DNA from: Sphagnum compactum
Lineage: Eukaryota
Direction of reading: 5' to 3'
Assembly: GCA_965153455.1 (NCBI GenBank)
Contig: OZ234494.1
Location: 1,984,001-2,048,000 of the forward strand
Length of the DNA: 64,000 bases
Made by a program: the position numbers and the translations under genes. Shown here one piece after another: positions 22,901 to 62,348 of this stretch; position 1 is the stretch's first letter, and each line of letters begins with the position of its first letter. A model generated the notes under the pieces. That model searched no databases and was not told where the DNA came from. It worked only from the letters and a program-made list of their open reading frames with translations.

Positions 22901-24166
22901 AGCACAAGTCAACAAACTGAGGGCGGGCCAACAAAGCACAATAAGCCCAATGCTTGTCAACAACCATGGACAACGTTGCCTGCGTGAGACCAGGCTTGTG
23001 GCGGCGAACAGGCCTGGCCTTCCCTACCACCTACCCTGCGGCCTCAAAGATCTCACATTCCAGGGTAGACCACTCCACTTCAGGGTCCAAGAAATCAAGA
23101 GACAACAAAGCAAACTAATTGCGCAAGAAGCGGCAAAAGTCTGTTACTGCCTGCGACCTGTCCCTCAGGGCAACTGCATCCCAGACCCCACTAGAAGTTG
23201 CTGCCCGTGGAAGGACTCACAAACGTAGCTATAGAGTCGTGGCAAGCAGCCGGTGGTCGCTATTGCCATGGCAAACACTTGTAAAGACCCAGTCTGACAC
23301 CCCACACATGAGGCTGTGGGAGCACATAATGTAGTCCTTGACGTACTAGCACTGGGTGGGAGGATGGAACCAGGTGGCCAAGTGGCTAGGCCAGTGTGGA
23401 AAGAAAGTGTTGGCCAAACGGAGCCCAAAAGATGCCGCCAGATCCAGGAGGTGATCCCCATCGTCAAAGGGCGCCTCGCTGTGGTGGAAGTGATGCCGGC
23501 CCATTGCGCCAGCAGAAGTCTCCTAGCAACGGCTAAGCTTAATGTTGAAGTCACCCAACACCACCACCTTGTTAACAGGGGGCACGGCCTTCAAGTAGCC
23601 AAACAGGAGCAAATGAAAGGCATCCTTGACGGAAGTGTTAGACACATCTGTGGGCGCATAGGCCACCACCATCGTCACATGCTGGCCAACAATGGCCCTG
23701 AAACAAGCTGAAAGCAAGCGAGGGCCAAACTGGCAAAAAGCGAGCATGGCCTCCTTCCATCTAGGCAAGATCAAGAGGCCCACCCCTTGCTGACGCCCCA
23801 CGTCCCCGCCTGACCAAAGCACGGACCAGTCGTCTCCCTCCACAAGGATATCACACTCGCCCTCGCCCGGCCAACGCAGCTCCTGCAGCCCATAGAGCCC
23901 GATGCCTAGATCTGACAACTGCCCTGCCAACATCGCTAGCTCCAGCCGCCCCTCCTCGCCCACCGCACACGTCTGAAGGTTGTATGTAGCCAATTTAACA
24001 TGACGTTTCACAAGTTGGACAGGCTGAGAAGACCACGCACGGCGAACTGTGGTCAAGCGGTTCCATAGCTGACCATTGACCCCTCGCCGGCTAGGTAGCA
24101 AGCCCCGCATTGTTGTCTCACACGATGGGGGAGGGTCAACGTCCTTGAAGTCACAACAAAATGTGT
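19979..24166 (-). mobile_element. RTE-clade LINE (APE endonuclease + RT), decayed, interrupted by a solo LTR
   Basis: EN motifs LATYNLQT, GLQELRWPGEG, GVGLLI, VAYAPT, VVLGDFN (ORF 23523-24179). RT motifs AFIDLTKAYDNINR, GVWQGCVAAPLLFN, LYVDD. RTE-type C-terminus RLSWLGHMARMPEERYPR. The 3' tail is (ATG)n (catcatcat at 19979-19993). Candidate TSD TAATTAGAT at 19970-19978 and 24167-24175. No ORF1. Confidence 0.88.
21742..22559 (-). mobile_element. Solo LTR (818 bp) related to the neighbouring chromovirus LTRs
   Basis: The reverse complement begins TGTCGCAACCCCACTTTGG and ends ...GGAGCGTGTCA, like the LTR at 24900-25716. Perfect 5-bp TSD CTCAC at 21737-21741 and 22560-22564. Confidence 0.93.
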
Positions 24167-25730: not shown

Positions 25731-25766
25731 TTAAGGTGAGCTCGATTCACTTCTTGGGAGTTTCGG

Positions 25767-27038
25767 ATGGCACCCAAGAAGAACCGTAAGCAAGCTCCGG
25801 AAGCCATGGCCGAGGAACCCATCGAAGAGCTTGTAGTCCCGCCGGAATCAATTGGGGAAGAGGAACCAATAACCCGAGAGGACCAAGATGAGCCCGAAAG
25901 TGAGGAGGAACAACGGAGCTCGGTCCTATTCACCCCGGAACAATTGGAAGTCCTCCTCAAGATGGGTAGGCCCGACTTCGGTGAGTTGGTGGCGGCCCTC
26001 AAAACATCAACCTCCAAAAGTGAAAGGTTTCAACCGGCCAAGCCCGGGAACTTCGATGGTGCCCGCGACCGAAAAGTGGTGGATGCTTGGCTTGTGGAAA
26101 TGGATGATTACTTACATGCCGCCAAGGTTGGACGACATTCCGCCGTGGAGCTTGCCCAATCTTACTTGAAAGGCTATGCTGCCACATGGTGGCGGACGGT
26201 GAGACAAGAAGAGGGGAAGAACCATGGCTACACTTGGGAGTTCCTTAAGGAACACATTGAGTCGGAATTTGTTCCGAGGAACTCCGACTACATTTCAAGG
26301 TGCAAACTCCGCGATCTTGTGAATGCCACAAATGACAATTTGCGGCAATATGTGAGGACTTATTCAGAACTTATGCTTGAGATCCGGCACATGCATGAGC
26401 TGGATCGTGTGTGCCAATTTGTGATGGGGCTTCCAACTTGGGCCAAGCGCAAGCTTGAGGAGAATTGGCCCTCCTCACTATCCGAAGTCATCATGAAAGT
26501 GGAAGGCTTCTCGGATGTGGGGCGGGGTGAAAAATCCGGGTTCAAGAAGGACAACAAATTCTTTCACAAAAAGCCAAGGCATGAGGGCGAATGGAACCGA
26601 GGGCAAGGAAGCCCAACAAAAGATAAGTCCAAGCAGTTTCAAGGCATGGGGTTCAAGCCAAAAGGAAATTTTGTGAAGAAGGGGGCTCCTTTCAAGGCGA
26701 GCCAACCCAAGGGAGATTTTGGGGTGAAACCCAAAGGAGCGTGTTTCAATTGCAACGAGATGGGACACTACTCCAAGGATTGTCCCAAGTCCAAAATGGG
26801 GAATGGGGGCTCTAAGGTAATTGCCCTCAATGCCAACCTAGCCCAACCCGAATGCAATCGACTTATCTTTTTGAAGGGGAAGATTGCTAAGCGGGATGTG
26901 TTATGTCTCTTGAACACAGGGGCTTCTCACAACTTCATAACCTGGGAAAGCGCCGAAAGGATGGAGCTCCACTTGGAGGAGCTCAAGGCACCCATCGAGG
27001 TGCACTTCGCGGATGGGGTTCCCCATCCCACAATGTGA
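25767..27038 (+). CDS. Retrotransposon Gag + truncated, mutated aspartic protease
   Basis: Gag-like sequence with zinc knuckle [14 protein letters not shown]. The protease motif reads [10 protein letters not shown] (catalytic D replaced by N) and the ORF stops early in the protease. Confidence 0.88.
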
Positions 27039-27039
27039 A

Positions 27040-30000
27040 AGCACATGAGTTGCCTTATGCGGGTGGACCAACCATCCACTTCATGTTAGGAAATTCCTGG
27101 GAAAGAGAATGCGTGGGAGGCTATGGCATGATGTGTGTGATGCGGATGTTGGATGAGTATGAGCCCAAGGAAGCCACCAAGTTGGTGACTTCCGCCAAGT
27201 GCATAAAGAAAGTTTTGGAAGAGTTCCCGGATGTGATGCCCAAAGAATTGCCCGAAGACTTACCCCCGAGAAGACGAGTTGATCATGCGATCGAGGTGAT
27301 GCCGGGAGTGGCACCTCCCGCCAAGGCCCCAAATATAATGAGCCATGAGGAGTTGAAAACATTTAAGGTTCAACTTGAGGAACTCCTCGCAAAAGGTTAT
27401 ATCAAACCAAGCAAATCACCATATGGGGCACCCGTCCTTTTTATTCACAAGAAGGATGGGACTTTGAGGATGTGTGTAGATTATAGAGCCCTCAATAAGG
27501 CAACGGTGAAGAACCGGTATCCTTTACCTCGGATCAATGATCTATTTGATCGTCTCTCGGGAGCCAAGGTGTTTAGTAGGATTGACCTACGTTCGGGGTA
27601 TTACCAAATTCGGATCGCGGAAGGGGACGAAGAAAAGACTGTTTGCCGCACAAGGTATGGCTCATATGAGTTATTGGTGATGCCTTTTGGGCTCACCAAT
27701 GCACCCGCCACATTTTGCACTCTCATGAATGACATTTTCCAAGAATGGCTTGACGATTTTGTGGTCGTCTACATAGACGACATTTTGATTTATAGTAGCT
27801 CCTTGGAGGAGCATGAGGAGCACCTTCGCAAAGTGTTCCAAAGGCTAAGGGAAAACAAGTTGTATGCCAAGCTTGAGAAGTGCGAATTTGGAGTGGCGGA
27901 AGTGGACTTCCTTGGGCATAGGATAACTCAAGAAGGTTTGAAGATGGATGATTACAAGGTTAAGGCAATCTTGGATTGGGAACCGCCTAAATCGGTTCCC
28001 ACCTTGAGATCCTTTCTTGGATTGGCATCCTACTATCGCAAGTTCATCAAGAACTTTGCAAGGATTGTCGTGCCTTTGACAAACCTTTTGAAGAAGTCCG
28101 CCGTCACTTATGAATGGGAAGAAGCATGCGACGAGGCCTTTGAAACATTGAAGGGCATTTTGGTGAAGGCGCCGGTGTTGAAGTTGCCCGACTTTGACAA
28201 AGAGTTTGAGATTCATTCCGATGCCTCCGACTTTGCAATTGGAGGAGTCCTAGTGCAAGAAGGAAGACCGGTGGCCTTTGAAAGTAAGAAGTTGAGTGAG
28301 AGGGAGCGAAGGTGGCCAACACATGAAAAGGAAATGTGGGCGGTCATACATTGTCTCAAGACTTGGGGCCACTACATAGGCTCCAAGGATGTGGTGGTGT
28401 GGACCGACAATGTGACCTTGAAATACTTTGCCACTCAACCCAAGTCATCATCCAAACAAGTAAGGTGGCAAGACACATTGGCATTGTTCAATGTGGATAT
28501 TCGGCACAAGTCGGGAAAGGAGAACATAGTTCCCGATGCCTTGAGCCGTAAACACCAACTTAAAGTGGTGTATGTGGGAGAGACGAAACTTCAAAAGGAA
28601 GTTCAACTAGCAAGCCGCCGGGATGCATTTGCCAAAGAGGTGAGGCAAAACATCCAAAATGGAGCCAAGTCCCACTTTCATTTGCAAAATGGATTATTGT
28701 GGTACAAACAAAAGCGACTCTATGTGCCGAAAGGGAAGATAAGGGACACCCTCTTGAAGGAGTGTCATGATGGATCGCTCGCGGGCCATGGTGGTGCAAA
28801 GCGCACCACAACATTTCTAAAGAAGTCCTACTATTGGCCTAACTTGAAGGATAGTGCGGAGGAGTATGTGAAGACTTGTTTAACTTGTCAACAAAACCGA
28901 ACCCTCAACAAGAAACAAGCGAGTTTGTTGCAACCTTTGCCAATTCCTGAAGGGCCGTGGGAAAGTGTGTCCATGGACTTCATGGTAAGCTTGCCCCCAT
29001 CAAAAGGGTTCGATGCCATCATGGTTGTGGTGGATCGGTTTAGCAAGATGGCACATTTCATTCCCACAAAAGATGAAGCCACGGCCCAAGAGACGGGAAG
29101 GTTGTTCTTCTCCCGCATCTTCAAGCACCATGGCCTCCCAAAGGACATAGTTACGGATCGAAACCCAAAGTTCACAAGCAAGTTTTGGCGAGCCTTGTGG
29201 AAGCAGATGGGGTCGGAACTCAAGATGAGCACTTCGTTCAAACCCCCAAACCGATGGACAAACCGAGAGGGTGAACTTGGTGATCCAACAATTCCTAAGG
29301 AATTATGTTGCGGCGGATCAACAAGATTAGGTGGACCATTTGGAGTTAGCCGGGTTTTGTTACAACAACTTGGCACACTCCGCAACTGGGTCCACCCCAT
29401 TCCAAATGGTGACGGGCAAGTCACCAATTGTGCCCATGATTTGGGCGGCACAAGGACAAACCTTGGGTGATGCAAATGAGGAAGTGCCGATGGTCCAACA
29501 ACTTGATGAAGAAAGGCGGCGCTTGTGGGAGTTGGCCAAGGCCAATTTAGAAAAGGCGCACAAAAGGTACAAGGATTTTGCGAACAAGTCCCGACGAAAG
29601 GTGAAGTTTCAAGAAGGGGATGAAGTGTGGTTGAACATCAAGAACTTCCGGTTGCCAGAAGGTTTAAGTCACAAGTTCTTGGGCCCATATGCGGGCCCAT
29701 TCAAAGTGTTGGAAAAGAAACTTTCCGACACTTATAAGTTAAAACTACCAGAAAATTTTAGAGTTCATCCCACATTTCATGTTTCCCTTTTGAAACCGGT
29801 CTCCCGTGATGCCTCAAAGCCTAATCGAGAGCAAAACTCAAGGCCCCCACCTGACTTGGTTCATAATGAACCAGAGTTTGAGGTGAAGGTCATGCTTAAG
29901 TCAAGGCAACTAAGAGGACGAGAACGGGAATACCTAGTTAAGTGGAAAGGATATCATGCAATAGAGGCTTCTTGGGTGACCGAATCCGATATGGAACATG

Positions 30001-30059
30001 CCCAGGAAGCCATAGAAGAATTCCACGCTAGACCGACAAAGAAAAGCCATAGAACGTGA
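27040..30059 (+). pseudogene. Pol: RT, RNase H, integrase, chromodomain (frameshift and stop in integrase)
   Basis: [62 protein letters not shown]. There is a +1 frameshift near 29242 (aaacccccaaaccgatgga, PQTDGQTER) and a TAG at ~29327. The C-terminal chromodomain reads EFEVKVMLKSR..REYLVKWKGY...ASWV..SDM. Confidence 0.93.
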
Positions 30060-37781: not shown

Positions 37782-38100
37782 CAAGATTCTGCCAGTACTC
37801 CAATTCCAGGCTTTCAACTTCCCTACTGAAAGAAATACCCTTTCGATTTCCATCAAACCTTAAACCCTAAAAAGAAGAGAACTGCAAAAGAAAAAACAGT
37901 CGGATTGATTCTTGGGTCCCATTTTGCAAAAGATTCTGCCACTACTCCAATTCCAAGCTTTCGACTTCCTGGCCGAAAGAGAGACCCTTTCCATTTCCAC
38001 CAAACCCTAAACCCTAAACCCTAAAACGAAGAGAACTGCACCAAAAAAGGAAAAGAAAAGGTCGGATTGATTCTTGGGGTCTCTTTTTCAAAAGGTTCCG
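37782..38100 (+). repeat. ~150-bp tandem duplication containing AAACCCT telomere-like repeats
   Basis: aagattctgcca.tactccaattcca.gcttt...gaagagaactgca...gtcggattgattcttggg occurs at ~37783 and ~37929; (AAACCCT)3 at 38002-38022. Confidence 0.85.
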
Positions 38101-42261: not shown

Positions 42262-42682
42262 TGTTGTGCGCTACCACATTAATGCCTACAACTATCGTTG
42301 TCATCATACATACAACAATACACAACAAATAAATCCTTGAACACTACACCATACCCAAACCAAAATGAATTCACTTGTAACAAATAAGAATTCAAGCCCA
42401 AAACATAATTAGAAATCAATAACATAAAACCTATAAAAAACTTGCATAAACATAAAAACCTACAAAACAAAACCATTATGTTGTGAAATCTCAAATCACC
42501 AAAAAAGGTTTTGAAATCACAAAAACTTGGGTTTTATACTCAATGCACAAATTAGTTTAAACATGTTCACATTGGAACTTGTTCATAGTTAAACTACATA
42601 TTAAATTAGATTGGCCTAACTAAGTTATATTAAACATAATTAATTTAGACTTAATTATAAAATTAATCATAACCACCTAACA
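42262..42682. repeat. LTR-like unit (TG...CA, 421 bp)
   Basis: 42361-42682 aligns with 52671-52989; 42262-42360 aligns with 42685-42780. Confidence 0.75.
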
Positions 42683-43028
42683 ATTGTCATGTGCTACCAC
42701 ATCTGCACTTACAACTATCAATGTCATTACACATACAACACATAACAAATAAAACCTTAAATGGTACACAATACCAAAACTAACCCCCCATTTTGGGCCT
42801 AAGTCCCTTTAAGTCAGATAACATTATAAGAAATGTCTTATGAAAATCATCATTAATGAATACTTTAATTCCAAAATAAAAGGACTAGTACGCATGATGC
42901 AAATGGGAACCCCATTGTTAGTCACTTAACTACAATCCTTCAAATCCTCAACCAAATGTGAATCACTATGAAATAAATACTTAAGCTAGTCTTATTATGT
43001 GACCTAAAAAACCTCTATCTACTTAGGT

Positions 43029-43163
43029 GCACTAAAAGCAAAACCATTTGCCAATCAATATTTTGTTCAAGGGTGGTGTAAAACATCCCATATGGCAACC
43101 CCTTGAACACCAATCACACACCAACATAATGGTAGCCCCAATAAATTGCCCACACAAAATACA
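43029..43163 (-). pseudogene. PHD finger downstream of the integrase
   Basis: CILC-x11-CDWC-x4-H-x2-C..PPL...GKWFCF*C; a C4HC3 pattern with the last Cys just after a stop codon. Confidence 0.88.
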
Positions 43164-44417
43164 ATGAAATCCAACAAGAACAATTGCCAAATATGGGTCA
43201 ACTTGGTCATCCAAATGGGGAAGATGACACAACACACAATTACACACATGATCCTTACATGTATAACCATCTCAACCCTCTAACAACAACACACTAGAAG
43301 GTAAAACCTTATATATTCAAAAAATAACACATCCTATAGTGACATCTAAAGTAGTTGATGACGTCTAATGTAGGTACACATAATGTTTTAGTTCAAATTT
43401 ACAAATTCAAGGCTAATATCCACCTTTTCGAATAGTGGCATATCGAAATCTATCTCGATGTTGAAAATTTGTTAAATTTTCCATAACCATGGGCAGTACA
43501 CATTGAAACAAAACTCCTCATTACTCACATGCCTGAAGCCACACATTTGGATTAATCAAATTAATGATGGCCATCACATCTTGTCAAATTAAGGCTAGAA
43601 ATTTGGGCTCACAAACAAATAGTAAAAAATATGGAAAGAAATATCCAAGGGAGGCTTGCCAACGAAACCTATACACCATAACTAACCATGGTAGTTTTAG
43701 ATCCCAATCTTGAATATGACCATTTTGAAGCCCATACTTTCACAAAATACGCTTGACCATCTACACCATATGTTTAACTAACCCGTCTATTTCAAAATGG
43801 TATTACGAATTAGTGCAATGATCAATAAATGAATCATATAAATGAGTTTCAATCGAAGCCCTAAATCTATTGAATACCATATTTTTAAATGCATATGATG
43901 CCCTTTCATTATTACAATATAGTAATGGCACTAGCTCCAACTACTTGGAAAAATGTTCAATCATAACCAAAACATATCGGTTATGTCAAGGTGTCAAATT
44001 CAATGGACTAGCAAAATCCAAACTCCATTGTTATCCAAGCCCCATAATTTGTAAACGTTGTAAGTGAAGTGTAGGTGCATTGAAAGGTGTTCAAACTTAA
44101 TCACACCATACACCGAATTTTTTTTTGTTGAACCTACAATTGCATCCCTCGCCACCAATATTGTGTTTGGAACAAACTGTAAGCCCATCGAACCCAATGA
44201 TGGCCCCACTCCTCATGAGCATGTTGGACAAAACCATCATGTTGTTTTGGGTAGGGTATTAAACCCATATTCATCCATATGTCCACACCCATAGCACATA
44301 TTCACCTTCTCATTTGAACCATTTGGCCCTATGAACAACTTGGTCCCATTCCTTGGGTGTCATCTAATCAAAATTTCACATGTTTGCAAATATGCAATAA
44401 TAGGTGAATCTTCATAT

Positions 44418-44966
44418 TATTAAGGGTGTTTTTTATTCCCTTTAATTTTACATCTTTTATTTTATTTTATAATTCTGGTTTATTAAAATTATTAATAGGT
44501 ATGGTTTTTTTCTCCAAATCTAAAATATCAAAACACAATAAACATTGAAGTCTTTTGTTTATTCATCAAGGACAAACTATTTTACCTCTTGCATTCCAAA
44601 GAACAGAAAGGAAAAGCTTCAAAAGAAAATCAAAATAAAAATAATTTTTCAAAAAATTCCAAGAGTTACAAAAAAATAAAAATCTCCTAATCTAGTTCTA
44701 AGTTCTTTTATTTATACCAACTCATAGTGTTGTTTCAACTTAAATAGTCACTAATCAGTATAAAACTCAAAATCAAAATAACAAAATTACTGGTCACACG
44801 TTTAAATCAATATGTTTTATTAACAACTAGTTATTAATTCATATAACAAAATGGTTAATTTAAGACTTGTTATTTAAAAATTAAATTAATCTCAAGGTCA
44901 TATTGCCTCACTAATTACCAATTGGTTTTAACCAGTCACTATATACATACTGAAAAATTGGGTAAA
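44418..44966. mobile_element. AT-rich ~550-bp insertion between RNase H and integrase (MITE-like)
   Basis: It splits the minus-strand reading ...GALDI|YEDSPIIAYLQ. Very AT-rich, boundaries approximate, TIRs not established. Confidence 0.5.
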
Positions 44967-46914
44967 CATATATCTAAGGCACCATTGCCTTATGGCTCAA
45001 TATCCTCCTCTTAGGAATTCCCACTATTCGATTTTGTTTTAGGTACATCCCCAAAACATCCTAATAAGGTGCACATGTATGTAGAAACATGCCACCCTAA
45101 TATTACTTCCAAATCCACATCACCATGCCAACAACCTTCAATAATATCCTCCTTACTAGAATTGAGGTTCTAATTCAACCCATTGGCATCCCGATTAATT
45201 CTACCAGCCCTATGCAATACATTAAAATCATATTCCTAGAGGATAATGCCCACCTAACGAACTTTCCTATGAGATGATTTGACTCCATAAAAAATTTGAG
45301 TAGTTGGTGATCGGTGACCAAAGTGAATGGGCTACCATAAAAATAAGATTTAAATGATGACACAACCCAAACAACTACAAGGCATTCCCCCTCATATGAG
45401 TTGTACTTGGCCTCCCTTTTTTATTAGACCAACTAATACATGCCACCACAAATTTTCGACCATCTTCATCAAGTTGGGTAAGCACAACCCCAACCTGAAA
45501 CTGTTCTAATCAATGTGTAATTGGAATGGTCATCATGGGATGGGTCACTTTAAAATGGGAGCTAATGAAAATCGAGCTTTCAATTTTTGAAAGGCCTAAT
45601 ATTATGTTTCACCCCAAATGAATTTTTAATCAAATTGTGTCAATTAAGTTAAAGGTTTATTTTTGCTACTGAAGTATTTCATAAACCTTTGGTAGTCATT
45701 ACACAAGCCTAAAAAAGTTCTTGACCAATTGACATCTATAAGTTAAGGAACTTGTGAAACGACCTCGACCTTGACCTTCTAAACCCCCAATCCATTGCAT
45801 AAATCATGTGACCCAAATATTCCACTTGGGTTTAAAAGAACCAACACTTGGTTGAATGAAATTTAAAGTTTTGTTCCGTAAGTCTTCTAAACATTTTCTA
45901 CAAATGATGCATGTGATCTCATGGGGTCAAATTAAAAACAATGATGTCATTGATATGGCACTTGGCAAAACCAAGACCCGTTAACACTCGATCCATGACC
46001 TTTTAAAATTTTGTAGGGGTATTTTTCAAACCAAATGACAAAAACTTTTATTGGTACAAAAAATCCTTCCCATGAGGATTGATTCCCCAAATGTCATCTT
46101 GACCTTGTCACCATCCTTTAATGGCAAGTGATGGTAGTTAGACCTCAAGTCCAAGGTATTGAAACCTTTGGCCTGACCGAGGCCATCAAAAAGCTCTTCA
46201 AGTAAGGGCATCACATATTTTTCCAAATGGGTCCGTTTATTCATTAAATGGTAATGCCCACACATGTGGCATTTGGTCCAATTACCAAAAATGTCCTTTT
46301 TGGATGGCATCACTATTGTTGAAGCATATGAACACCCTTAGATTGTTTCACCAAACTTACATGTAGTAACTTTGTTGTTCGAGCATGAACCAAGGCTCTC
46401 TCCACCTCACTAAGCTTGTAAGGTCACGTAAATATTAGATTATTATCCTCTAATGTGATTAGGTTTTCTTGTCCTTTTGATTGACCCAATTCCTTCAAAC
46501 TGAATGCAAAATATCCAATGAAATTTTATAATAATCATTATGCACCATGCACCTCACCTCTTATAATCGATGGGCTAATATTTGGCTCCCATCTATTTGT
46601 AGTCACTTGTACTTTAGGTTGGGATGATGAAACATCCTTGACACCCAAGGTTGAGGGCATGGCATGTGATTGTTACATGGAATGTGGGGAAGTGCCACCA
46701 CATCTTAGCACCCCCACATCACCAAATTCTTGTTCCACACCCATAAATCCTCTTCACTGTCCTTAATCCCACAATTGCCAAAGATGCACAACTTGTCATG
46801 TTGTAATATCAACCCTCCCCTTGCACAAACATAGCTAACCCAATGAAAAGTGCAACATATGGAAAAGTGGGTGGAATGGGTGGGTTTGTTTGATCAAAAA
46901 GTTTTTTTATTTTA

Positions 46915-47490
46915 CCAAGACCAAATTGAAAATCCATGTGAGGTAATTTAGATCCATAACTTGCCCCAAATTGTTTTATGAATTCCTTCAAGAATACTTT
47001 GCACAAATGTGGTGCAAATGTGAAACCCTATGGCTCGTTCACTTTCATTTGCATTGGGTTCCTCCATATTGGATGAATGGGAATCCCAAATCATCCCTAG
47101 GCCTCCCATCCCTAGGCCTCCCATCCCTAAAGGCATGAGAACATGGGAAATTCAAGAATGTCGGTAGGGTTGTTCATGGAAGGCCAACTGTATTGACCAC
47201 AACCAAAGGTGATCATGACAAACCTACATTTAGCTATGATTGGGCCCTTAACAAGGTGATGTTGCTTGGTAGGGAATGTTGACAACCTTGCATGGTTGAT
47301 GTTGGCAACAAGTTGGGATAAAATTGCTATAACATCATGACATGCCACATGGAGGTTTATATGGCTTATGGATCCTTCTCCACATAATGGCATTTTCGGA
47401 TTAAAATGCCAGACTGTATAATTGTGCATAATCCAAAACTAATGCCTCCAAATAACTCAAGTAGGCATATTCCATCTTGAGGAATATCCC
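46915..47490 (-). pseudogene. Cytosine-5 DNA methyltransferase-like domain, internally deleted and decayed
   Basis: Motif I-like LLELFGGIS.G (47438-47465) and motif II-like HYVEKDP; motif IX-like EEPNANESERAIGF (~47023-47065); motif X-like GQVMDLNYLTWI (~46930-46967). Motifs IV (PC) and VI (ENV) were not found. Confidence 0.75.
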
Positions 47491-50400
47491 ATTGAATAAC
47501 CTTGGTATCCAATGGGCTCAAACCTAGAGGCACAAATGAATGTGGGTTTGGTGATGGTAAAATGTGCCAAACTTGATGAATGTAATCATGAATAGCTGAT
47601 GTTTGGAGTTTGGTCAATGTGTCCCATGGTGGCTTGGGATCCAATGTGGAAATTGAAATGAATGCCATCCCTTGTTGCATTGACATCACCAATTCACCAC
47701 TTAAAGGTACATTTTGGTCATGGACGTTACTTTCCAATAATTCAAACCTATGTGGAAGGCCTAAAAATTTGACCAACATAATTGATTTGTTGGATTTTCA
47801 TGTTTGACCCCCAATGAATTTCATCGACAATAATGCATTGTGGCTAACTCTCGTTTGCCAACATGGGCAATAGTATGTGGTTTTTTCCCCAAAATCTTTA
47901 ATAATCCCCATGGATATAAAACCACACCTCCCAGCAATACGTCATAGGACATAACATGTGTGACCATTATTTGTGCTTGAACTATAATGTAGTTTGTTGA
48001 TTTGTTGGGATTAACTTAAATCACAATTTCTTGTTTGGTTAACCTTTGAGTCATGTCCAACCCTCCCACTGATGTTGATATTTGATATGGGCATGGGTTG
48101 AAATCGGCAACGATCAATCCAAGACCATCAATGGTTGAACATTGAAATCCAACAACACTTTTTAGGGTCGATACCAACCTACTGATGCCCCCTTCAATTT
48201 AAAAACTCCTTCCTCATAATGCACCACTGCCACACTAATTAGCCCAATCAATGGTTAGTTGCATTAAAAGGTTATGAAGTTCGGCCACAACCACATGCCA
48301 AGATTTAGGTTGAACCTTGGACACCTCCATGGGGTTGGATTCAGAAACCTACTGGGGAAATGTAAAAGGTACAATAATGTCTTTTGACCTAACCACCACA
48401 TCTGATGTTCCTTCATTCTCACATAATGTGGCTGCCAAATGAATCACAACTACTAGTTGAATACATGAAACAACTAATGTTTCATCAAAAAATAATGGTA
48501 ATTAACACACCATTTTGGCCACCCCCAATAAAATTGTTAATGTCTTGGATCTAAAAATCTGGCATCACACCAGAGGTTAATAACCCCATGGGATTGGGAA
48601 TGGTGTTTGTCAACACAAATGATTGTGGGAGTCGCACTTGGCGTTAAACTTCATCATGACAAGGATCAAATTTTTCATATGCATTTCGTGGTTCTAGCAA
48701 TCAAGCATTAACCCTTATCATTGGTGCAATTATTGAGATCATTTCATTATGATTTGAAACCATAACATGGTTTCCATCATCTATTACCCATTAATCATGA
48801 TCTCCTGACATATGTGGCATAATATCTTTTTGTGCCACTGATATTAATAAACTGGTAACACAAAAGAATTTTAAATTAATATTTGAACGATATGATTGGC
48901 CATCTTTTCGATCCTTGGCCTTCCATGACCCAAATTTATTAGATTTCACCTAAGTCACCATGCTTGTGACCAGGGCTTCTAACTATGCAAACCTGACCTC
49001 CATGGTGTTGGGTTGGCCTTAAGCTGGTTTGGTAATTGACCCTTTATTAGTTGCCCCTTTGCCTTTCTTCCCAAGAACCTTGGCTTTTACTAGCATTGGA
49101 AGTATGAGATTGGCCTTGTTGTAATCTTAGATGGAATGTAAATGACTGTTCTGCATCACGCCCATATGTATTACAATGGGAACATGGTTGGTTGAGATTA
49201 AGGTTGGAAGTATCGGCGTGAGGAGGATTGGATTGGGACAATTCTTCTTTTAATGTGGCCACACCTCCAACATTTTTTTCTCCCCCTTGTTCATCAAAAT
49301 ATGATATGGAACCACGTGATTCATATTTGGACGTCCCCTTGCCCTTTTGGGGCATGGCCTCATTGGGTTGGCCCTTTGGTTATTGAATTAATAATGTTGG
49401 AAAACTCCTTGGGTTTTTTTTATTGAACCCAAATGTAACCACACACTTTTCAACCATGTTCATCTCAATCCACTCTGACAAGTTGAATACATTAGCCAAT
49501 GTGGGTTGTGTAAGTTGAAGTAACAAAACATTTTGCACTTATTTCCTAGGAGCCTTCTCTAAGATCTCATACCAAAATTGGACTGATTGGGCCTTTGTAA
49601 CACCTTGTGTCACCATGATCAACCTATTCATTTATGCATAGGCCTCTCATAAGCTTTCATGGGGTTTATGTTGAAACTTTTACAAACATCACAATTTTTC
49701 AATCTTGGAACCTTTTGGTAATTTCGCAACAAATCTTGGAAAATTTCCACAAAAAATTAAAATGTAGGTAAAAGGTCTGGAATACAAGTGGATGCCCCTG
49801 CACCACCACTTTTGGTGACTCCATTACCACTAGCATTTATGTTTCACTAGCATTTTGGCTTCCATTGGCATTTTCACTTCCACTTGGTGAACTAATGCTG
49901 GGAGTTGTTGTTGCACCACTTGGGGCCAATAGAAACATAATTGGGCAACCAATATAGTCATTGTTTCTCAATTTGAATATTGTGGTAGTCATTCATGGGT
50001 GGCCCCTTTAAATCTTGGAATAGTCTCTTCCATGACATGGATGGTGTAAAAAGCTATGGGTTATGCAACATCTATACATATCACACCAAGTATCAATCTC
50101 TTGGATGAAATAATCTAACTTAATGGTGCCAACCATCCCCGAATATCAACGGGGGCCCTTGGTGGCTCCATATAGGTCATCCATGTCCCACAACAATGGT
50201 GTGGTGACCACACTTGATGATGAACCTATATATGAGGACTCTTTTTTAGATGATGATGAAGGCAACATGGGTGGTCTAAATCGCACCCCAAACTTAATAA
50301 AACCATTGGCAATAGTAACTATGTATTTTGTCCCTAAATCCTATGTCACTTTTGTGGTGAACCTTAACTCTAACTTGGGTATCCAATTTTGAAACCACTA

Positions 50401-52670
50401 TAACCAAAGGTTTTTGTACCTGTAATGGATTACGGTACACGTAAAAGAATGTTGAACATGTTGTGACTTAACCTACCCTTTAAACCATAATCCCCATAAA
50501 ATGGACCCATGGATGTTTCATATGAATGGTTAGGGCATTTACACGCACAAAAACATTTCATGAGGTCGATAAAACTTGGGCACACTATGAACACAACAAA
50601 TGTGGTTATCAACTTGATCTCACCAGCATAAACATAGCATGGGATGATTGGTGATCAAATCCAATACATCCATAACAATGCCAACCCCGTACAACCTAAT
50701 AATATTTAATTAAATCCTAATCACGACATGTGAGCAAAACATGAGTCAAACAAGACCTACACAATGGTCAAAACTAGGTGGTAGCCTTGTCCCATGCTTG
50801 GCCATTAACCACACCATTAAAACCCAAGGTTCATTATGAGAATAAAAACATGCATGGAAAGGCACATAACCTTTCACCTTGAATTTTTCATTATGTAATA
50901 TGAAAATGTTTATGACAAATCAACTTAGAAACATGTGTTTACTCATTAAATTGTCGACCAATGGCACACAACTCACGAAACCCCCTTACCTCCTAAAAAT
51001 GAATTGATGACCCAACCTACATAGTGATAGGAGGCATGTGCACCCCACAAACGCAAGTGAAGGTGCAAAAATCATGCAACACAAATATCCATTTTTGTGA
51101 TTTCCACATACAAATCACAACAAGAATTCAAAATGAGTTTAGGATTTGCTTGATGATGCAACACTCCATTACTTGTAAGATATAGGTTTGGGGCTTATCA
51201 ATGCAAGATGTTAACAACAAAATCCTTGACAAAATCGACCCCACACACACTGCTTTCTGCACATGTGAAAACCCTCTGAAAATGTCCTCCCCCAAAATGG
51301 CCTAAAACTTGCACACACTTAGCTTTCTTTTTTAGGATCACAATGGTGAAGATGACATTTAGTTCCACCTTTGTATGAGAAATATGAACTTTCGAGATTT
51401 AATGAAAAATAAACCCCCCCAAAAAATAGCCTCTGGATTAACCAACTTGTAGTTTCCAAAAAGCTTTCATGCTTGCATGCTTGTAAATATTGATGAAAGG
51501 AATCCAATGGTTTAAAAAACACTCCATTCCAACACCATATGTGGAAGTTATGGGCTTTCAAAGTTTGGAGATGGATGAAACATTTTTATCCAAATTATGA
51601 ATGAAAGTTGCCACTTGAATGATAGTAAAAAATGAAAAAATAGAGAAAAGGTAAATCTTTGGATGGATGTAATATTCAAATTATGGATGAAAAACCTTCT
51701 AAATGGATGAAAATTGAAAATGAAAACTTTGATGAATTAATTTTGGCATTCAACATGTGCCCTATGTTTAAAAAATGAGAAAAAAATTGAAAAATTATAT
51801 GGGAAGTCCGGATTGGACTTCCCATGCCTCCTTATCCCAAACCTCCTTTGGGCCTTATGAACCTCCCAAAGGGCCTAAGCCTAGGAGGCTAAGAAGATTA
51901 CTAAAAACCAGGCAATGGCAATGGAGCTCTGAGCTCCTCCCACCATCGACCTTTTTTTTTCCTTCTCTTATCCTCTTCCTTCTTTTCCTTTTCCTTCTTC
52001 CTTCCTCTTCTCCTTCTTTTCTTGTTATTCTCTTATTTTTATCCTTTTTTCCCTCCTATTGTAGTTACAACAAGGATGACGAACGTTGTGGGGAACTCCT
52101 CTCCTTGCCTTTTTTTACTTTCAAGTTGAAGCCACAACTATGCCACCAACAATGACTAGGGGGCAAAGGACGCCCCCCTTTTCCTTGATGAATTGGTGCC
52201 AAAGGCTAAACAACTAAAAGTTCAAGCTCCTTGGCGATGGGAGTGGTGGTTCCAATTGTTGTTGCCATTGTACCTACCAAGGAAACAAAAAGAGAGATCA
52301 AGAGAGAGAAGAATAAAGAAAAAAACATTAAGGGGCCCCTGTGACATAATTAAGGCCCTCTTTGCTTCTTGTGGTACTTTTTTCTTTTCCCAACTCCAAG
52401 GTACCCATGCCTTGTTTGGGTTCAACTCTTCATGGAATTTCAAACCAAAAATTGTCACAAAATTTCCAATTTCATTAGGTGAAGCAAATCAAGAAATGAA
52501 CAAACATAATTTTTCAATCAAGCAAAACTCTTGTAAAAACAATGTGCAACAACACAACTACACCACTTACCGTTAACCCACTCTCGTGCAAAACATAAAT
52601 ATAACCATGTGCATAAACAAAACAAAATTAGTTGCATCAGTAAAACAATTAATTGCCATTTTGGTGATTC

Positions 52671-52989
52671 AAAATGAATTCACCTACAACTAGTAGGAAT
52701 CCAACCCCAAAACATAACAAGAAAGCAATAACACAAAACTCCAAAAAAAACTTGCATAAACACAAAAAGTTGGAAACTAGAAAACTACGTTGTGAAATTT
52801 CAAATCACGAAAGAAAGATTTGAAATCATAAAAACTTGAGTTTATACTCAATTCACAAATTAGTTTAAACATGTTCACACTGAAATTGGTTCACAACCAA
52901 CTACATATTAAACTAAATTAACGTTACTAAACGAAATTAAACATAATTAATTTAAACTTAATTATACAACTAATCATAACCACTTGACA
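52671..52989. repeat. Partial LTR-like repeat at the element's 5' end
   Basis: caaaatgaattcacc...cataaccacttgaca matches 42361-42682. Confidence 0.8.
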
Positions 52990-55436
52990 ATAAACTCCAT
53001 GTCCTACCATTATTCTTACCTTTTTCACATTTTAAAATTGAAGTTTAAATTAAAAGTTAATGATGTATTTAATTATTAAAATATATTCCATAAATCTAGA
53101 GTAAAATCTTACCCAAAATGCTTAAAATTGTATTAGCATCATAGTACACTTACACCATAAGTGTTGCATTTAATTACACATGTTATAATTTTGTTTTTGT
53201 ATTCAACATCATAAATAAAAAAGATTGAGAGGTTTTTAATTAATGTTGGTGGGTTCTTGAATTTCAATAGCTTCAAGTCAAATTATAAACTTAGGTTTTA
53301 AAATCTTTGGACCAAACCTTCCAAGTTTTTTTTGAATTACCATTGAAACCTAATGAAAGAACTAATTTATTTTCAAAATTGAGTTAAAATTTTAATTGTG
53401 GATGTTGTCTTGTTTTAAAAAGGTTTAGGTTCTTTACATACATAAATATAATTTTATTTTAAAATGTATGAACTTGGTTTTACATTTTAAATAAGTTATT
53501 GCATTTGATTAGTTGCACATAATTAATATTACACAATCTTTAACTTAGAACAAGTGTATTAATTTAACAAATAAATTACACAATTGTTTTTGAGGGTGGG
53601 GGTGGGGGGGGGGGGGGGGGTGTGGGGAGGATTTCAATTGTGTGTAATGGAGATGGAATTGAACTTTGTCTTAAACCAAACTAGATCTAAATTGTATGAA
53701 AATAATTGAAATTGAAATTTAAAAAATCCAAAAAACCAATCCCAAGATTGGACTAGAGATTTCATTATAAAAAAAGAAAGTTAAAACTGACCAAACGTTC
53801 CTTTTAAAATGTAAACTTGAACAACAACAATCTCAAGTTCCAACCCATCTATCTACCCATCAATCTATTATGGGGTGAATGCATCTCAAAACTTAGGTGC
53901 TTCCAAGTTCATGGATACAATTCCTCCCCACCCACCCATTCATTTGAGTCCAATTAGAAAGTGTCTAAACTTTGGGAAGAAGGTGGGTAGCACCTAGCAA
54001 CCCTAATAAAAATGATGCTCATGAATTACATGTAATGAATGAATCAATTATCGATACATTGCGCTTTGGAATTCCCCCTTGGAAAAGCTTCTTTTGCCTC
54101 CATAGGCCAACAATTTGTTTTGGGTTGTGGAACACAAGAGGCTTGCTACCCAAGTTGCACATTCTTATGACACAAACTATAAATTCGTATGCACACTTTC
54201 AAACACATGTTATTCATTATAGCACACCATGCCAAAGCTCTATATATGTTTATATATATATTTATACATTCTCTAGATTATCTAGAGTTCATGGTTTCAA
54301 GCGGTTCATTATGTACATAATTCAAACAAAAAAAACATGAAAAAATAAGAAAATTAAAAAGGGTGAAGGGGATATATATATTAAAGTGATAAAACTTCAT
54401 CTCTTTTACCATTATATTTATGACATTCTCATATTTTCAAAATGAAGCTTCAATAATAATTTGAAAAGACTTATTTAAATACTAAAGTACATTGCATAAA
54501 TCCAAAGCTTTTTCCTTGGCCACAAGGTTTTATATAAGTAGATAGGGAGAGAGAGAGAGAGACACACACACACACAAACACACACATCTACTCAATTGGG
54601 AAACAGGTAGGAAGTTATTTGGGGGGTACAAAGTCACTGGAGCTATGATGGTCTAGGCTAGACCTCTAGGAAGTAGTAATAGTTAATAGTACCTTGTGGG
54701 TGTTTCTAGAAGGTCAATTGTTTTAGGGCATACAAAAAAGAATAGAGTAAAGGGGTTTGTGTAGTGAGGAAGATTTTTAAAGAAAGATTTTTATTACCAT
54801 AAGTCAATTCTCGGTGTAGAACATCCCCCTCCGAATACACTAAAATAATTCTTTCAGTTGTTGAAACAATTTTTTAGTGAAAATATCATGTTGAAAAAAT
54901 TGTCACAATTATGGAAGGGTTTTGGTATGAATAATCTTGTTAAACCGATACGACATTTATTATGGTAGACTTAAAGAAAATCATAAAATATATATCAAAA
55001 TTTCAAGTATAATAATAATAATAATAATAATTTATTTTATTTTATTTTTGAAAAAGAACAATTATGCGGTTTTGTGAATGTGGAAGCTGACCCTAAGCTA
55101 AGGGAATCTATTATGCAACGATGGGTGGGGCTCAACTTGGTGCTTGGTGTGCACGCAATTGTGGTGGGCCTCCCTTTGCCACCCATCCATAGTTGAATTG
55201 TACGCACATGCTTTTCAAAAACATTATTGGTTCCCATCAGTTTATAAGTATATCCGGGCAAACTTTTTGTAGGACTGTGGACCTCCCAAACACTTTGTGA
55301 AAAGGAGAGCCTCTTTTTAGGGTTACGTATTTAACTTATTGGCTATCCCTGTAAAGGGAGAGAGATGTAGTTTTTCATTTTGGTCCCACACACATTTTGA
55401 AGGTATGTTGGGCAGGTGTTCACTCGGAGTTGATTT

Positions 55437-59921: not shown

Positions 59922-62348
59922 ATGGTTGTAAATATAATTGTATTGGTAGTTCTGCTTTTGAAATTAGTCAATTTGTATATGATAATGGAAGTTAGTTCCA
60001 ATGGAAATTCAGCTCACAATGCCACTCCTCCTCCTCATACTTTACCTAGTTCTGAACACAGCAGGAAACGGAAGCAAGTATGCAAGGTTGCTACCACTCT
60101 ACCTGCCTTTGCACCAGCAAATGGAGCTAAATGCGTACAGAAAGTTAGTAAACGAACCAGAGATGACAACCTCGCCAATCAGGACTCTATGGAGCCAGCT
60201 TGTCTGCACGGCAGGTTTGGTAAGAGAGTCTCTGTCAGAGAAAAGCAGTATAGTTGTACAAAGGTGTGTCCACTATCTTGGAGTAATGCAATCTCTGAAC
60301 AATGGACGTGCCTCAAAAATGAGGAAGGATTTGCAGATATCAAGGCCAAGCTTGTGCAAGGACTTGCTCTGCTTGAGTCAGACTCCGTAATGCCACAGAT
60401 CTATCAAGACTCTGTTCTGAATGAACAAGCACAGTGTCTTGAAAGACAAGAGCAGCTGCTTAGACAGTCTCAAGGTGATGCTAATGTGCAATTTGCATGG
60501 CCTTCCCTAAAAAATGAGGAAGAATTTGCAGATGTCAAGGCCAAGCTTATCAAAGGACTTGGTATTTTCAGTTCAGATGCCCTGATAACAGGGATCTATC
60601 GAGATTCAAGTTCAAAAGGACAAGCACGGCAGCAAGCCTTTGAACGACAGGAAGAGCTGACAAGAGAAGCTCGAGGTGATGCAAATGTGCAGTATGCATG
60701 GCATGGAACTTCAAAGACAGGGGTGTCAGGAATAATGCTACATGGCTTTGGACAGCCTAGGACACCAAAGAATGGCTCAGCTTATGGTGTTGGAGTTTAT
60801 TTGGCCCCAGAAAATCATGCTGATGTCAGGTGGAAATGTCTTGCTTATGCATTTGAGATGTATTCATGCATATGTTCTCTATTTTTTTGAGCCAAGGCCC
60901 TTGCCTTCACTTTGTGGGCCAGCTCTTTGTATAATGAAAGGGAGGTGCATTGGATGGATGGCTTTGGTTTGAGCCTCTTGGCATGATGAGACTGATCTAT
61001 GAATTGCCTGTGTATAGTGCTGTGTATGCAGATAATGATGAAAATGGAGAGCAGCACATGTTGCTGTGTCGGGTTGTATTAGGGAGGCCAGAGCCTGTTA
61101 AGCAAGGCTCTGATCAGTTCCACCCTAGCAGTGAGCACTTTGACACAGGTGCAGATGACCTTTCCGCTCCAAAGCGACTTATTGTGTGGAGTACCCACAT
61201 GAACACTCACATTCTCCCACTCTATGCTGTCAGTTTCAAGCTGTCTCCTAAATGGCATGGTAAGTTCTGGATTGGTTTTTGATAGCTGCTTGTCAAAGAA
61301 GTTAGTTTTCTGATTTTTAAAGTTAATTTTTCTTTGGGTTGGTATTTATTTTTTGGTGACTATCTGGACAAGGCATAATTTGTTTTTTTTGGCAGATTTC
61401 AGTCCCAGCACCTGCTGTTGAATTGAAGGGATTCATGCAAAGGTATCTGTTAGTCCTGTATCTTTGCCTTTTAAGTCTTATACACAACAGCTGGCTAAGC
61501 CAAGTGATCTGGTTGCAGAGTTGATGGCAGAATTCAAGGGAAAGCAGCAGGGAGGAATCTTCAGAACATGGAATGATGTTCCGATGAAGTCTCCATGTGT
61601 TTACATCAAGGTTTGTCTTAAGTTTATCAATGGTCAGTTTGTCACTTCCTGTAGCATGTATGGACAGGTATTTGATCAAGTTATTGTGTTGGATGGTGTA
61701 CTTGATTTTCTCAGCATGCCTTCTGGACAGGCATTCATACCCTTGTTGTTGGTCAAGGTGGTGGCTGTAGGGTCTTTTGCAAGCTACTGCAGTACATCTG
61801 AGTGTATGAGGTGATCATTAACATGTGTTAAATGGTTTTCTAACATGAAGCATACACTCGCTGGGCTGCAGTTGTAGCCTCTGGATTACAAGTGGCTCTT
61901 TGGTTGGGATGATAGCTTTTTTGTGAGATGAAATAGTGTTTCTGTTGTGCAGACTCAAGAGCCATCAGAAGAATGGTATGACCATGTGGGTGGAATTCAA
62001 CAACAGGTTCTTGGTCCAACATCCCCCTGCGTCTCATTCCCATGCCTTTTTGTCATTTTGCGACAGCAACTTGAACCAGAAGACGTCTATTTCCTGGAGC
62101 AGCAGTATGTTGCATTCAAGGTGGTTACGAAACTTTTCATGGTTCAAAATTGTTAACACTGTTCATCTCCCTGGAGGTGTCCCACTAATTCATAAGTCTC
62201 CTGTAGGTGGAATGTGTTTAATGAGTTGTATCCTTTGATTTCTCAGGCTGGTAGGCTCCCGCGGGAACAGCTCATCAAAGTTTGTCGAGATGTGGCTGGA
62301 GATGCACTCCTGGTTAATGCTATTCGACAGCTTAACAAGTGCCAAAAG
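59922..62348 (+). CDS. RCD1/SRO-family protein (PARP-like domain + RST domain); start and last exon uncertain
   Basis: Exons 59922 (or ATG 59979/59985)-60829, 61018-61259, 61519-61610, 61953-62120, 62247-62348, then either 62996-63016 or 63878-63904. Motifs GDANVQYAWHGT, YGVGVYLAP, DENGEQHMLLCRVVLG, QFHPSSE.FDTG.DD...PK..IVWSTHMNTHILP; RST PTSPCVSFPCLF...REQLIK..R.VAGD.LL..AI. Confidence 0.9.

Follow-up and report, generated by a model that had tools for sequence, protein, structure and literature searches.

Judging from sequence comparison, the PHD finger encoded at 43163-43029 on the minus strand of the window (the whole stretch of 64,000 nucleotides analysed here) is a C-terminal module of the integrase that is conserved, and in frame, throughout a family of Ty3/gypsy retrotransposons. 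As judged from the relatives described below, the family also encodes a DNMT3-like DNA methyltransferase (DNMT), which in elements of the window's type lies between the protease and the reverse transcriptase (RT). We consider it fairly probable that the PHD finger is an ancestral, selectively maintained integrase C-terminus in a green-lineage Ty3/gypsy clade equipped with a DNMT3-like enzyme, and that it would serve as a tether to histone H3 tails unmethylated at K4 (H3K4me0). The window copy is an old, inactive, CpG-depleted fossil of this PHD-bearing family.

The window copy and its surroundings

The translation of the reverse complement, CILCGQFIGATIMLVCDWCSRGCHMGCFTPPLNKILIGKWFCF*C, is that of a 45-residue C4HC3 PHD finger in which all zinc ligands (8/8) are retained with the spacing C-x2-C-x11-C-x2-C-x4-H-x2-C-x15-C-x2-C, and the single in-frame stop falls between the last two cysteines. 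In the Pfam profile search on the window frames, in which stop codons were read as X, PF00628 matches exactly these residues (E 2e-05 in a 2700-residue frame) with a score that only just exceeds the curated cut-off (24.9 vs 24.0 bits); the PHD fingers of intact relatives score 34-47 bits. The frame 44363-43020 (-), with 448 codons, 21 stops and no frameshift, leads from the integrase zinc-binding region through the core and the SH3-like C-terminal region into the PHD finger, and is joined by tblastn in a single HSP to residues 569-1028 of P0001, an intact protein of 1033 aa (43.6% identity over 470 columns, E 4e-104). Since this one HSP runs through the PHD finger, a chance cysteine pattern is ruled out and the finger is contiguous with the integrase; the original prediction of a complete C4HC3 PHD finger following the integrase is thus borne out in its ligands, its reading frame and its profile score. 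All eight ligand columns are common to the window copy and six stop-free relatives in an alignment of these sequences (A2).

A second cysteine-histidine motif, H-x3-C-x2-C-H, can be recognized in the SH3-like region of the integrase (window ~43240-43270, minus strand), some 20-25 residues upstream of the PHD finger. It corresponds to columns H113, C117, C120 and H121 of A2, is invariant in 7/7 rows including the decayed window copy, and may represent an extra zinc knuckle.

The element to which the PHD finger belongs is ~10.6 kb long, lies on the minus strand, is bounded by direct LTRs, and is collinear from the protease to the PHD finger with the two open reading frames of L001, an intact relative, when these are used as tblastn probes (Table 1). 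With protease, RT, RNase H and integrase in this order between direct LTRs, it is a Ty3/gypsy element. The LTR similarity extends by eye ~15 nt beyond the blastn match, reaching 53009 and 42699, and the LTRs start with TGGTAG; the 5' LTR is 77.6% identical to the LTR of a related copy in L065. The long-range repeats of the element are terminal and direct only, in three collinear pieces with a spacing of 10307-10309 bp, and ~330 nt of non-coding sequence separate the end of the PHD finger from the 3' LTR.

Table 1. Parts of the decayed PHD-bearing element, and the chromovirus of the same window.
Feature	Positions	Strand	Evidence
5' LTR	52670..53009	-	blastn, 52670-52991 vs 42361-42684: 81.5% over 325
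5' UTR and gag region, decayed	48124..52669	-	no recognisable gag
Aspartic protease remnant	47902..48123	-	tblastn with L001 ORF1 731-804, 36% identity, E 2e-08; 1 stop
DNMT3-like C5-methyltransferase remnant, internal deletion	46862..47641	-	tblastn with L001 ORF1; 10 stops
RT	45748..46645	-	PF00078, 41.1 bits; tblastn with L001 ORF2 4-304, three frame-shifted pieces, 33-57% identity
RNase H	45023..45796	-	PF17917, 46 bits at ~45420-45244; tblastn with L001 ORF2 289-547; 16 stops
AT-rich insertion (~550 bp), RNase H/integrase boundary	44416..44969	-	spanned by P0001 residues 550-569
Integrase (H2C2 zinc region, DDE core, SH3-like C-terminal region, linker)	43164..44363	-	single HSP to P0001 569-1028; stops only
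PHD finger	43029..43163	-	PF00628, 24.9 bits; 8 ligand columns; one stop
3' LTR	42361..42699	-	blastn match to 5' LTR, 81.5%
Chromovirus, nearly intact	25740..30059	+	overlapping-frame ORFs

The protease and DNMT remnants are visible only by tblastn with L001; Pfam searches on shorter pieces of 46500-52900 gave no DNMT, gag or protease match even at E values up to 1. The DNMT remnant consists of an N-terminal part (L001 ORF1 residues 890-1021 at window 47641-47222, E 8e-14) and a C-terminal part (residues 1163-1268 at 47212-46862, E 7e-06). Because the two pieces abut in the window and are separate in L001, ~140 DNMT residues are missing from this copy, and since the missing part holds the motifs FENV (1074) and HRPRW (1114), its catalytic core has been deleted. 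The earlier claim that the same element encodes a DNMT therefore stands as far as these remnants go, and fails for an intact domain. For the gag region, the corresponding part of L001 ORF1 gave no tblastn match (E<=0.01) and Pfam gave none either, and 49982-50221 resembles three related loci (L005, L007, L020) at the DNA level only (68-72%); as this region (~4.5 kb) is longer than the gag part of L001, it probably holds insertions. The AT-rich insertion is specific to this copy, because it is absent from P0001 and because its flanks are adjacent (14697/14700) in a 78%-identical copy flanking L065; it has no convincing terminal repeats. With L001 ORF2 as the probe, the stretch from the integrase through the PHD finger is recovered at window 44262-43029.

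Stops occur in 7/8 of the pieces into which the domains of the element were cut, and its observed/expected CpG ratio is 0.23, as against 0.62 in the neighbouring chromovirus. The stops, the internally deleted DNMT, the AT-rich block, the divergence of the LTRs and the loss of CpG together mark the copy as dead and old. In its decayed sequence, neither a primer-binding site nor a polypurine tract nor a target-site duplication is recognisable.

The neighbouring chromovirus consists of ORFs for a gag-CCHC-protease protein of 432 aa, an RT-RNaseH-integrase protein of 859 aa, and an SH3-chromodomain protein of 242 aa. The last of these, 29331-30059 (+), matches SH3_Tf2-1 and, at ~29880-30032, the chromodomain profile PF00385 (43.1 bits), in agreement with the chromodomain that had been proposed for this element as a term of comparison. 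Elsewhere in the window, 37783-38018 contains two 89-nt direct repeats, 87% alike, each with a terminal AAACCCTAAACCCTAAA, which is a plant telomere-type repeat in an internal position. Two ORF fragments, one for a carbohydrate phosphorylase (PF00343, 164.7 bits, 9023-10088, +) and one for a PARP catalytic domain (PF00644, 36.5 bits, 59922-60890, +), are probably exons of host genes. A GC-rich block at 20000-24000 (54-55% GC vs ~40% around it) carries overlapping ORFs on both strands, and the two of them that were tested had no Pfam match.

The PHD finger and the methyltransferase among relatives

A protein search with the integrase-PHD frame of the window returned 7 relatives, and in four of them (P0001-P0004, the last from Tetrabaena socialis) hmmscan places a PHD finger after the integrase. 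It occupies residues 983-1027 of the 1033 in P0001 and 993-1037 of the 1039 in P0002, and these two proteins represent clusters formed at 90% identity, which comprise 15 and 33 members and include several full-length sequences. Metagenome contigs were scanned with RT and integrase patterns, and not with the PHD finger, which yielded 597 candidate stretches and 301 confirmed relatives; the best 80 were kept, and since they were picked by similarity to a PHD-bearing query the sample is mildly biased towards PHD-bearing copies. Within these best 80 of 301, a full PHD finger is present at 63 loci and a partial one at 6, 11 loci end before its expected position, and it is absent from none (0), so that a full or partial PHD finger is found in 69/69 assessable loci; in 61 of the 63 loci with a full finger, it lies in one HSP with the integrase C-terminus. 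A search with HMMER of the SH3-like region plus PHD finger of L001 against 1.84 billion representatives gave 283 proteins at E<=1e-30, and the matches listed mostly cover the query as one stretch.

The PHD fingers of four subfamilies differ at most positions other than the ligands, which are kept: in the order of the sequence, the ligand columns hold C in 62/62, C in 62/62, C in 60/62, C in 52/62, H in 57/62, C in 51/62, C in 51/60 and C in 57/57 cases. At four of the cysteine columns the most frequent departure is a tyrosine in place of the cysteine (C-to-Y), and the copies showing it have stops as well. The presence of the finger in all assessable loci among the best 80 of 301 and in the 283 representatives rules out the one-time capture of a host exon; the in-frame fusion to the integrase, proposed from a single decayed copy, recurs in the intact sequences of L001, P0001 and P0002, and no assessable locus of this sample lacks the finger.

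Among the best 80 of 301, L001 is the sole locus in which both long ORFs are open. Its ORF1 (1369 aa) encodes two CCHC knuckles, an aspartic protease that is weak in Pfam (22.4 bits vs a cut-off of 24.3), and a C5 DNA methyltransferase (PF00145, 51.1 bits); its ORF2 (1047 aa) encodes RT, RNase H, integrase and the PHD finger (40.6 bits), and one TAG codon parts the two. The DNMT has as its best PDB matches the catalytic domains of DNMT3A, DNMT3B and DNMT3C (E 1e-07), ahead of the bacterial M.HaeIII (6e-05), and the motifs ELFAGIG, PCQ, FENV and ERERAMGF are present. L001 ORF1 thus has a DNMT3-like catalytic domain inside the coding region, which is the mark of a Gypsy-DNMT3 element and of which remnants survive in the window copy. 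In 40/43 assessable loci of the best 80 of 301 the RT is preceded by a DNMT, the three loci without one being L004, L051 and L074. No terminal repeats were found on the L001 contig, which probably ends inside or before the LTRs.

The junction between the two ORFs of L001 (L001:5083-5091) reads TAG-CAG-TTA, a read-through-prone context. As a feature of the family the context TAG-CAR-YYA was rejected, the exact motif being present at only 1/40 junctions examined; TAG-CAA-CCC occurs within ~20 nt of the predicted junction in many other loci. On one metagenome contig, an NB-ARC gene and an LRR gene (L031:9320-12211) lie ~7 kb from the family copy, from which we take it that the metagenome contigs come from a plant genome.

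Searches with parts of the DNMT gave 55 and 66 proteins, and the sources named include Marchantia polymorpha, Closterium sp. NIES-54, Chlamydomonas eustigma and a complete EukProt transcript ORF. Two gene orders can be recognized. The first, that of the window, is gag, protease, DNMT, RT, RNase H, integrase and PHD finger, and P0065 has all of these in one ORF of 2358 aa. The second and commoner order is RT, RNase H, DNMT, integrase and PHD finger, followed by a tail of 300-420 residues that has no Pfam match in the elements searched (L079:1601-2617; P0078, P0086, P0092). The DNMT is directly upstream of the integrase and PHD finger in P0078, P0086, P0088, P0092 and P0144, with P0088 consisting of these three domains only. 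By a hand count on a precomputed domain list, 50 of the 66 proteins matched for this RT-RNaseH-DNMT-integrase-PHD architecture contain PF00628. In P0148 (2306 aa), which has its DNMT between RNase H and integrase, the integrase is followed by a PHD finger (1923-1967) and then by a chromodomain (1993-2043). This tandem indicates that the PHD finger sits in the slot in which chromoviruses carry their reader, as had been suggested for the window copy.

An unrooted integrase tree, computed without the PHD columns and with the chromovirus and two other rows left out by a length filter, groups the window copy with P0001, L001 and P0002 (SH-aLRT 99), nested in a clade of 10 rows (SH-aLRT 99) made up only of elements with the DNMT before the RT. 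In this nearest clade 5/10 rows (P0063, P0064, P0069, P0072, P0150) have DNMT and integrase and are without a PHD finger, which argues that the finger is dispensable in some lineages and that the DNMT does not depend on it; gain and loss of the finger are not separable in a tree that is unrooted.

Predicted ligand and function

In sequence and in a structural model, the PHD finger of the family most resembles readers of the unmodified H3 tail. Its best sequence matches in the PDB are CHD4 PHD1/2, PHF12, PHF21A/BHC80, KDM5 PHD1, KAT6A, ATXR5, UHRF1, DPF3, BAZ2A/B and AIRE. AlphaFold modelling of the C-terminal 198 residues of L001 ORF2, with 6 sequences, gave a structure that is weak overall (mean pLDDT 57.8), with values of 63-82 in the PHD blocks and below 50 in the ~20-residue linker to the SH3-like region. 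As modelled, the PHD finger has the cross-brace zinc-finger fold, and Foldseek superposes it on BHC80 with an rmsd of 1.1 over 55 columns, on BAZ2A bound to an unmodified H3K4 peptide with an rmsd of 1.3, and also on ATXR5-H3, on UHRF1 with the unmodified H3 N-terminal tail, and on DPF3b. PHD fingers of the BHC80, BAZ2A, ATXR5, UHRF1 and DPF3b type read the unmodified H3 N-terminus and are without the aromatic cage of H3K4me3 readers. An aromatic residue immediately precedes the histidine of the family PHD finger, as in these neighbours. H3K4me0 readers, a class to which AIRE and KDM5A-PHD1 also belong, use an acidic cluster to contact the unmodified K4 and the H3 N-terminus; a cluster of this kind, ahead of the M-L-L-C-D stretch, is present in the L022 and L079 subfamilies and absent in those of the window, L001 and L005, and for this reason the histone specificity may differ between subfamilies.

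Since its nearest neighbours in sequence and fold read the unmodified H3 tail, we read the PHD finger as a tether to H3K4-unmethylated nucleosomes, histone-tail tethering being the function that we infer for it. Elements of the window's type are laid out, from LTR to LTR, as gag with two CCHC knuckles, protease, DNMT and a stop codon, after which come RT, RNase H, integrase and PHD finger. After reverse transcription, the PHD finger would hold the integrase-cDNA complex to nucleosomes whose H3 tail is without K4 methylation, acting as a flexible tether of the intasome in the manner of a chromodomain, and the tethering would steer insertions away from active promoters. The methyltransferase made from ORF1 might then methylate the new copy or the cDNA. 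Chromovirus chromodomains steer insertions to H3K9-methylated chromatin. That chromodomains direct integration is cited in the accessible part of PMC6673714, and de novo CG methylation by retrotransposon DNMTs is reported in that of PMC5890265. A bolder form of this proposal, which we regard as rather unlikely, would have the two activities form a two-part kit of ancient acquisition, in which the integrase PHD finger picks H3K4-unmethylated chromatin and the element's own DNMT3-like enzyme methylates the new copy. The logic of DNMT3 would then have been rebuilt in trans, in a widespread green-lineage gypsy clade reaching land plants, and the acquisition would be common to chlorophytes and streptophytes and not specific to Klebsormidium.

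Alternatively, the PHD finger may serve the element's methyltransferase as an ADD-like guide, in an unprocessed polyprotein or in a complex of DNMT and integrase, so that de novo methylation would be directed to nucleosomes lacking H3K4 methylation, in the new copy or in its vicinity. Host DNMT3A and DNMT3L combine an H3K4me0-reading ADD with the methyltransferase on one polypeptide, with allosteric coupling between the two. The elements likewise have a PHD-type finger whose nearest solved relatives are of the H3K4me0 type and a catalytic domain that is DNMT3-like, and in the commoner gene order the DNMT stands right upstream of integrase and PHD finger, P0088 being an ORF of just these domains. 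However, here the finger is a simple one of 45 residues and not an ADD, and in the window's type a stop codon, RT, RNase H and integrase lie between the DNMT and the PHD finger; with the DNMT in ORF1 and the finger at the end of ORF2 of L001, this is not a fused reader-writer like the ADD-methyltransferase of DNMT3, and direct coupling is argued against. Relatives with a DNMT and no PHD finger also speak against such a guide, which we hold to be improbable, if not negligibly so, and which is not exclusive of the integration tether. As to the original prediction that the element couples tail-guided integration with its own methylation, the architecture proves conserved, and the functional coupling is left unsupported or at most inferred.

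A role of the PHD finger away from histones (binding of a host protein, nuclear import, integrase multimerisation or nucleic-acid binding), with no reading of chromatin state, appears to us quite unlikely. It would fit the missing acidic cluster of the window, L001 and L005 subfamilies, and PHD-like cross-brace fingers in transposases can bind DNA, as stated in the available part of PMC5861402; against it, the nearest neighbours in sequence and fold are all readers of the H3 tail, and the PHD-chromodomain tandem of P0148 points to chromatin reading. The last possibility, that the cysteine pattern arose by chance or that the window copy once took up a host exon, has in its favour the near-threshold PF00628 score of that copy, but is reduced to a vanishing probability by the single HSP that runs from the integrase through the finger (E 4e-104) and by the finger's recurrence, in full or in part, in all 69 assessable loci of the best 80 of 301, to which hundreds of representatives are added.

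Known reader-bearing elements and significance

The tether proposed here can be set beside several known systems. In chromoviruses such as MAGGY, too, the integrase ends in a small module that reads histones and follows the SH3-like region; their module is a chromodomain, whereas here it is a zinc-binding PHD finger with the unmodified H3 N-terminus, and not H3K9me, as its likely ligand, and a DNMT is present in addition. The chromodomain profile PF00385 has no match in three frames of 42900-51001 or in L001 ORF2, which by this domain sets the window element apart from the chromoviruses.

KnitGypsy-Dnmt3 of Klebsormidium nitens (de Mendoza et al. 2018, PMC5890265) is likewise a streptophyte Ty3/gypsy element with an intronless DNMT3-like domain in which the catalytic motifs are kept. 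In the accessible text of that paper the element has DIRS-like repeats and its acquisition is placed 'in the K. nitens lineage', whereas the window element has plain LTRs with no DIRS-like arrangement, and its relatives come from Marchantia polymorpha, Closterium, Tetrabaena and Chlamydomonas eustigma. A PHD finger is not mentioned in the main text or text supplement of PMC5890265, and the figures or PDF supplements may show one; the text supplement mentions neither Marchantia nor KnitGypsy. Among the matches to our integrase-PHD and DNMT queries, most of which are nameless database entries, no protein is named as K. nitens.

PHD fingers are no novelty in the transposons of green algae, REM1 of Chlamydomonas being reportedly one that bears a PHD. 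In the parts of the literature at hand, the legend for Gypsy-7a_cRei lists a PHD together with RT, RH and INT (PMC9940879), the PHD counts as 'a common accessory domain' of Chlamydomonas TEs (PMC8557442), and among chromatin domains PHD and Chromo are reported to be those most often fused to TEs (Grau-Bove et al., bioRxiv 10.1101/2021.11.30.470311). The Chlamydomonas elements of the Gypsy-7a_cRei kind are, like ours, green-lineage LTR retrotransposons with an accessory PHD finger; in those same portions of text no DNMT is reported for them. The EpiLTRs of Cymbomonas and Euglena, which according to the available text of bioRxiv 10.64898/2026.05.21.726589 carry an adenine methyltransferase, a DNMT4-like enzyme and a chromodomain together, are likewise LTR elements that pair a chromatin reader with DNA methyltransferases, the pair here being instead a PHD finger and a DNMT3-like enzyme; the same text refers to 'streptophytes (Gypsy-DNMT3)'.

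Both transposon PHD fingers and a gypsy element with a DNMT3 are therefore already published. In the literature searched, mostly outside subscription journals, no description turned up of a DNMT3-like enzyme conserved together with an integrase C-terminal PHD finger, of the two gene orders, or of the presence in land plants. The pairing of PHD finger and DNMT is real and conserved, and only partly new.

For the window itself, the PHD finger amounts to the annotation of an old dead copy. For the family, the data widen the published Klebsormidium-specific Gypsy-DNMT3 to a large clade with two gene orders and with relatives in Marchantia, Closterium and volvocine algae, in which the PHD finger is almost never missing. 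Public data include intact copies (L001 and the clusters of P0001 and P0002), which make peptide-binding and methylation assays feasible. If the two-part arrangement of reader and methyltransferase held, the element would arrive in a genome already 'dressed' as silent DNA, or would shape the methylation around it. If the PHD finger is indeed a tether to H3K4-unmethylated chromatin, this family would have solved, independently and by a second route, a problem for which chromoviruses employ the chromodomain, and it would offer a natural system for understanding how a transposon uses a DNA methyltransferase of its own.
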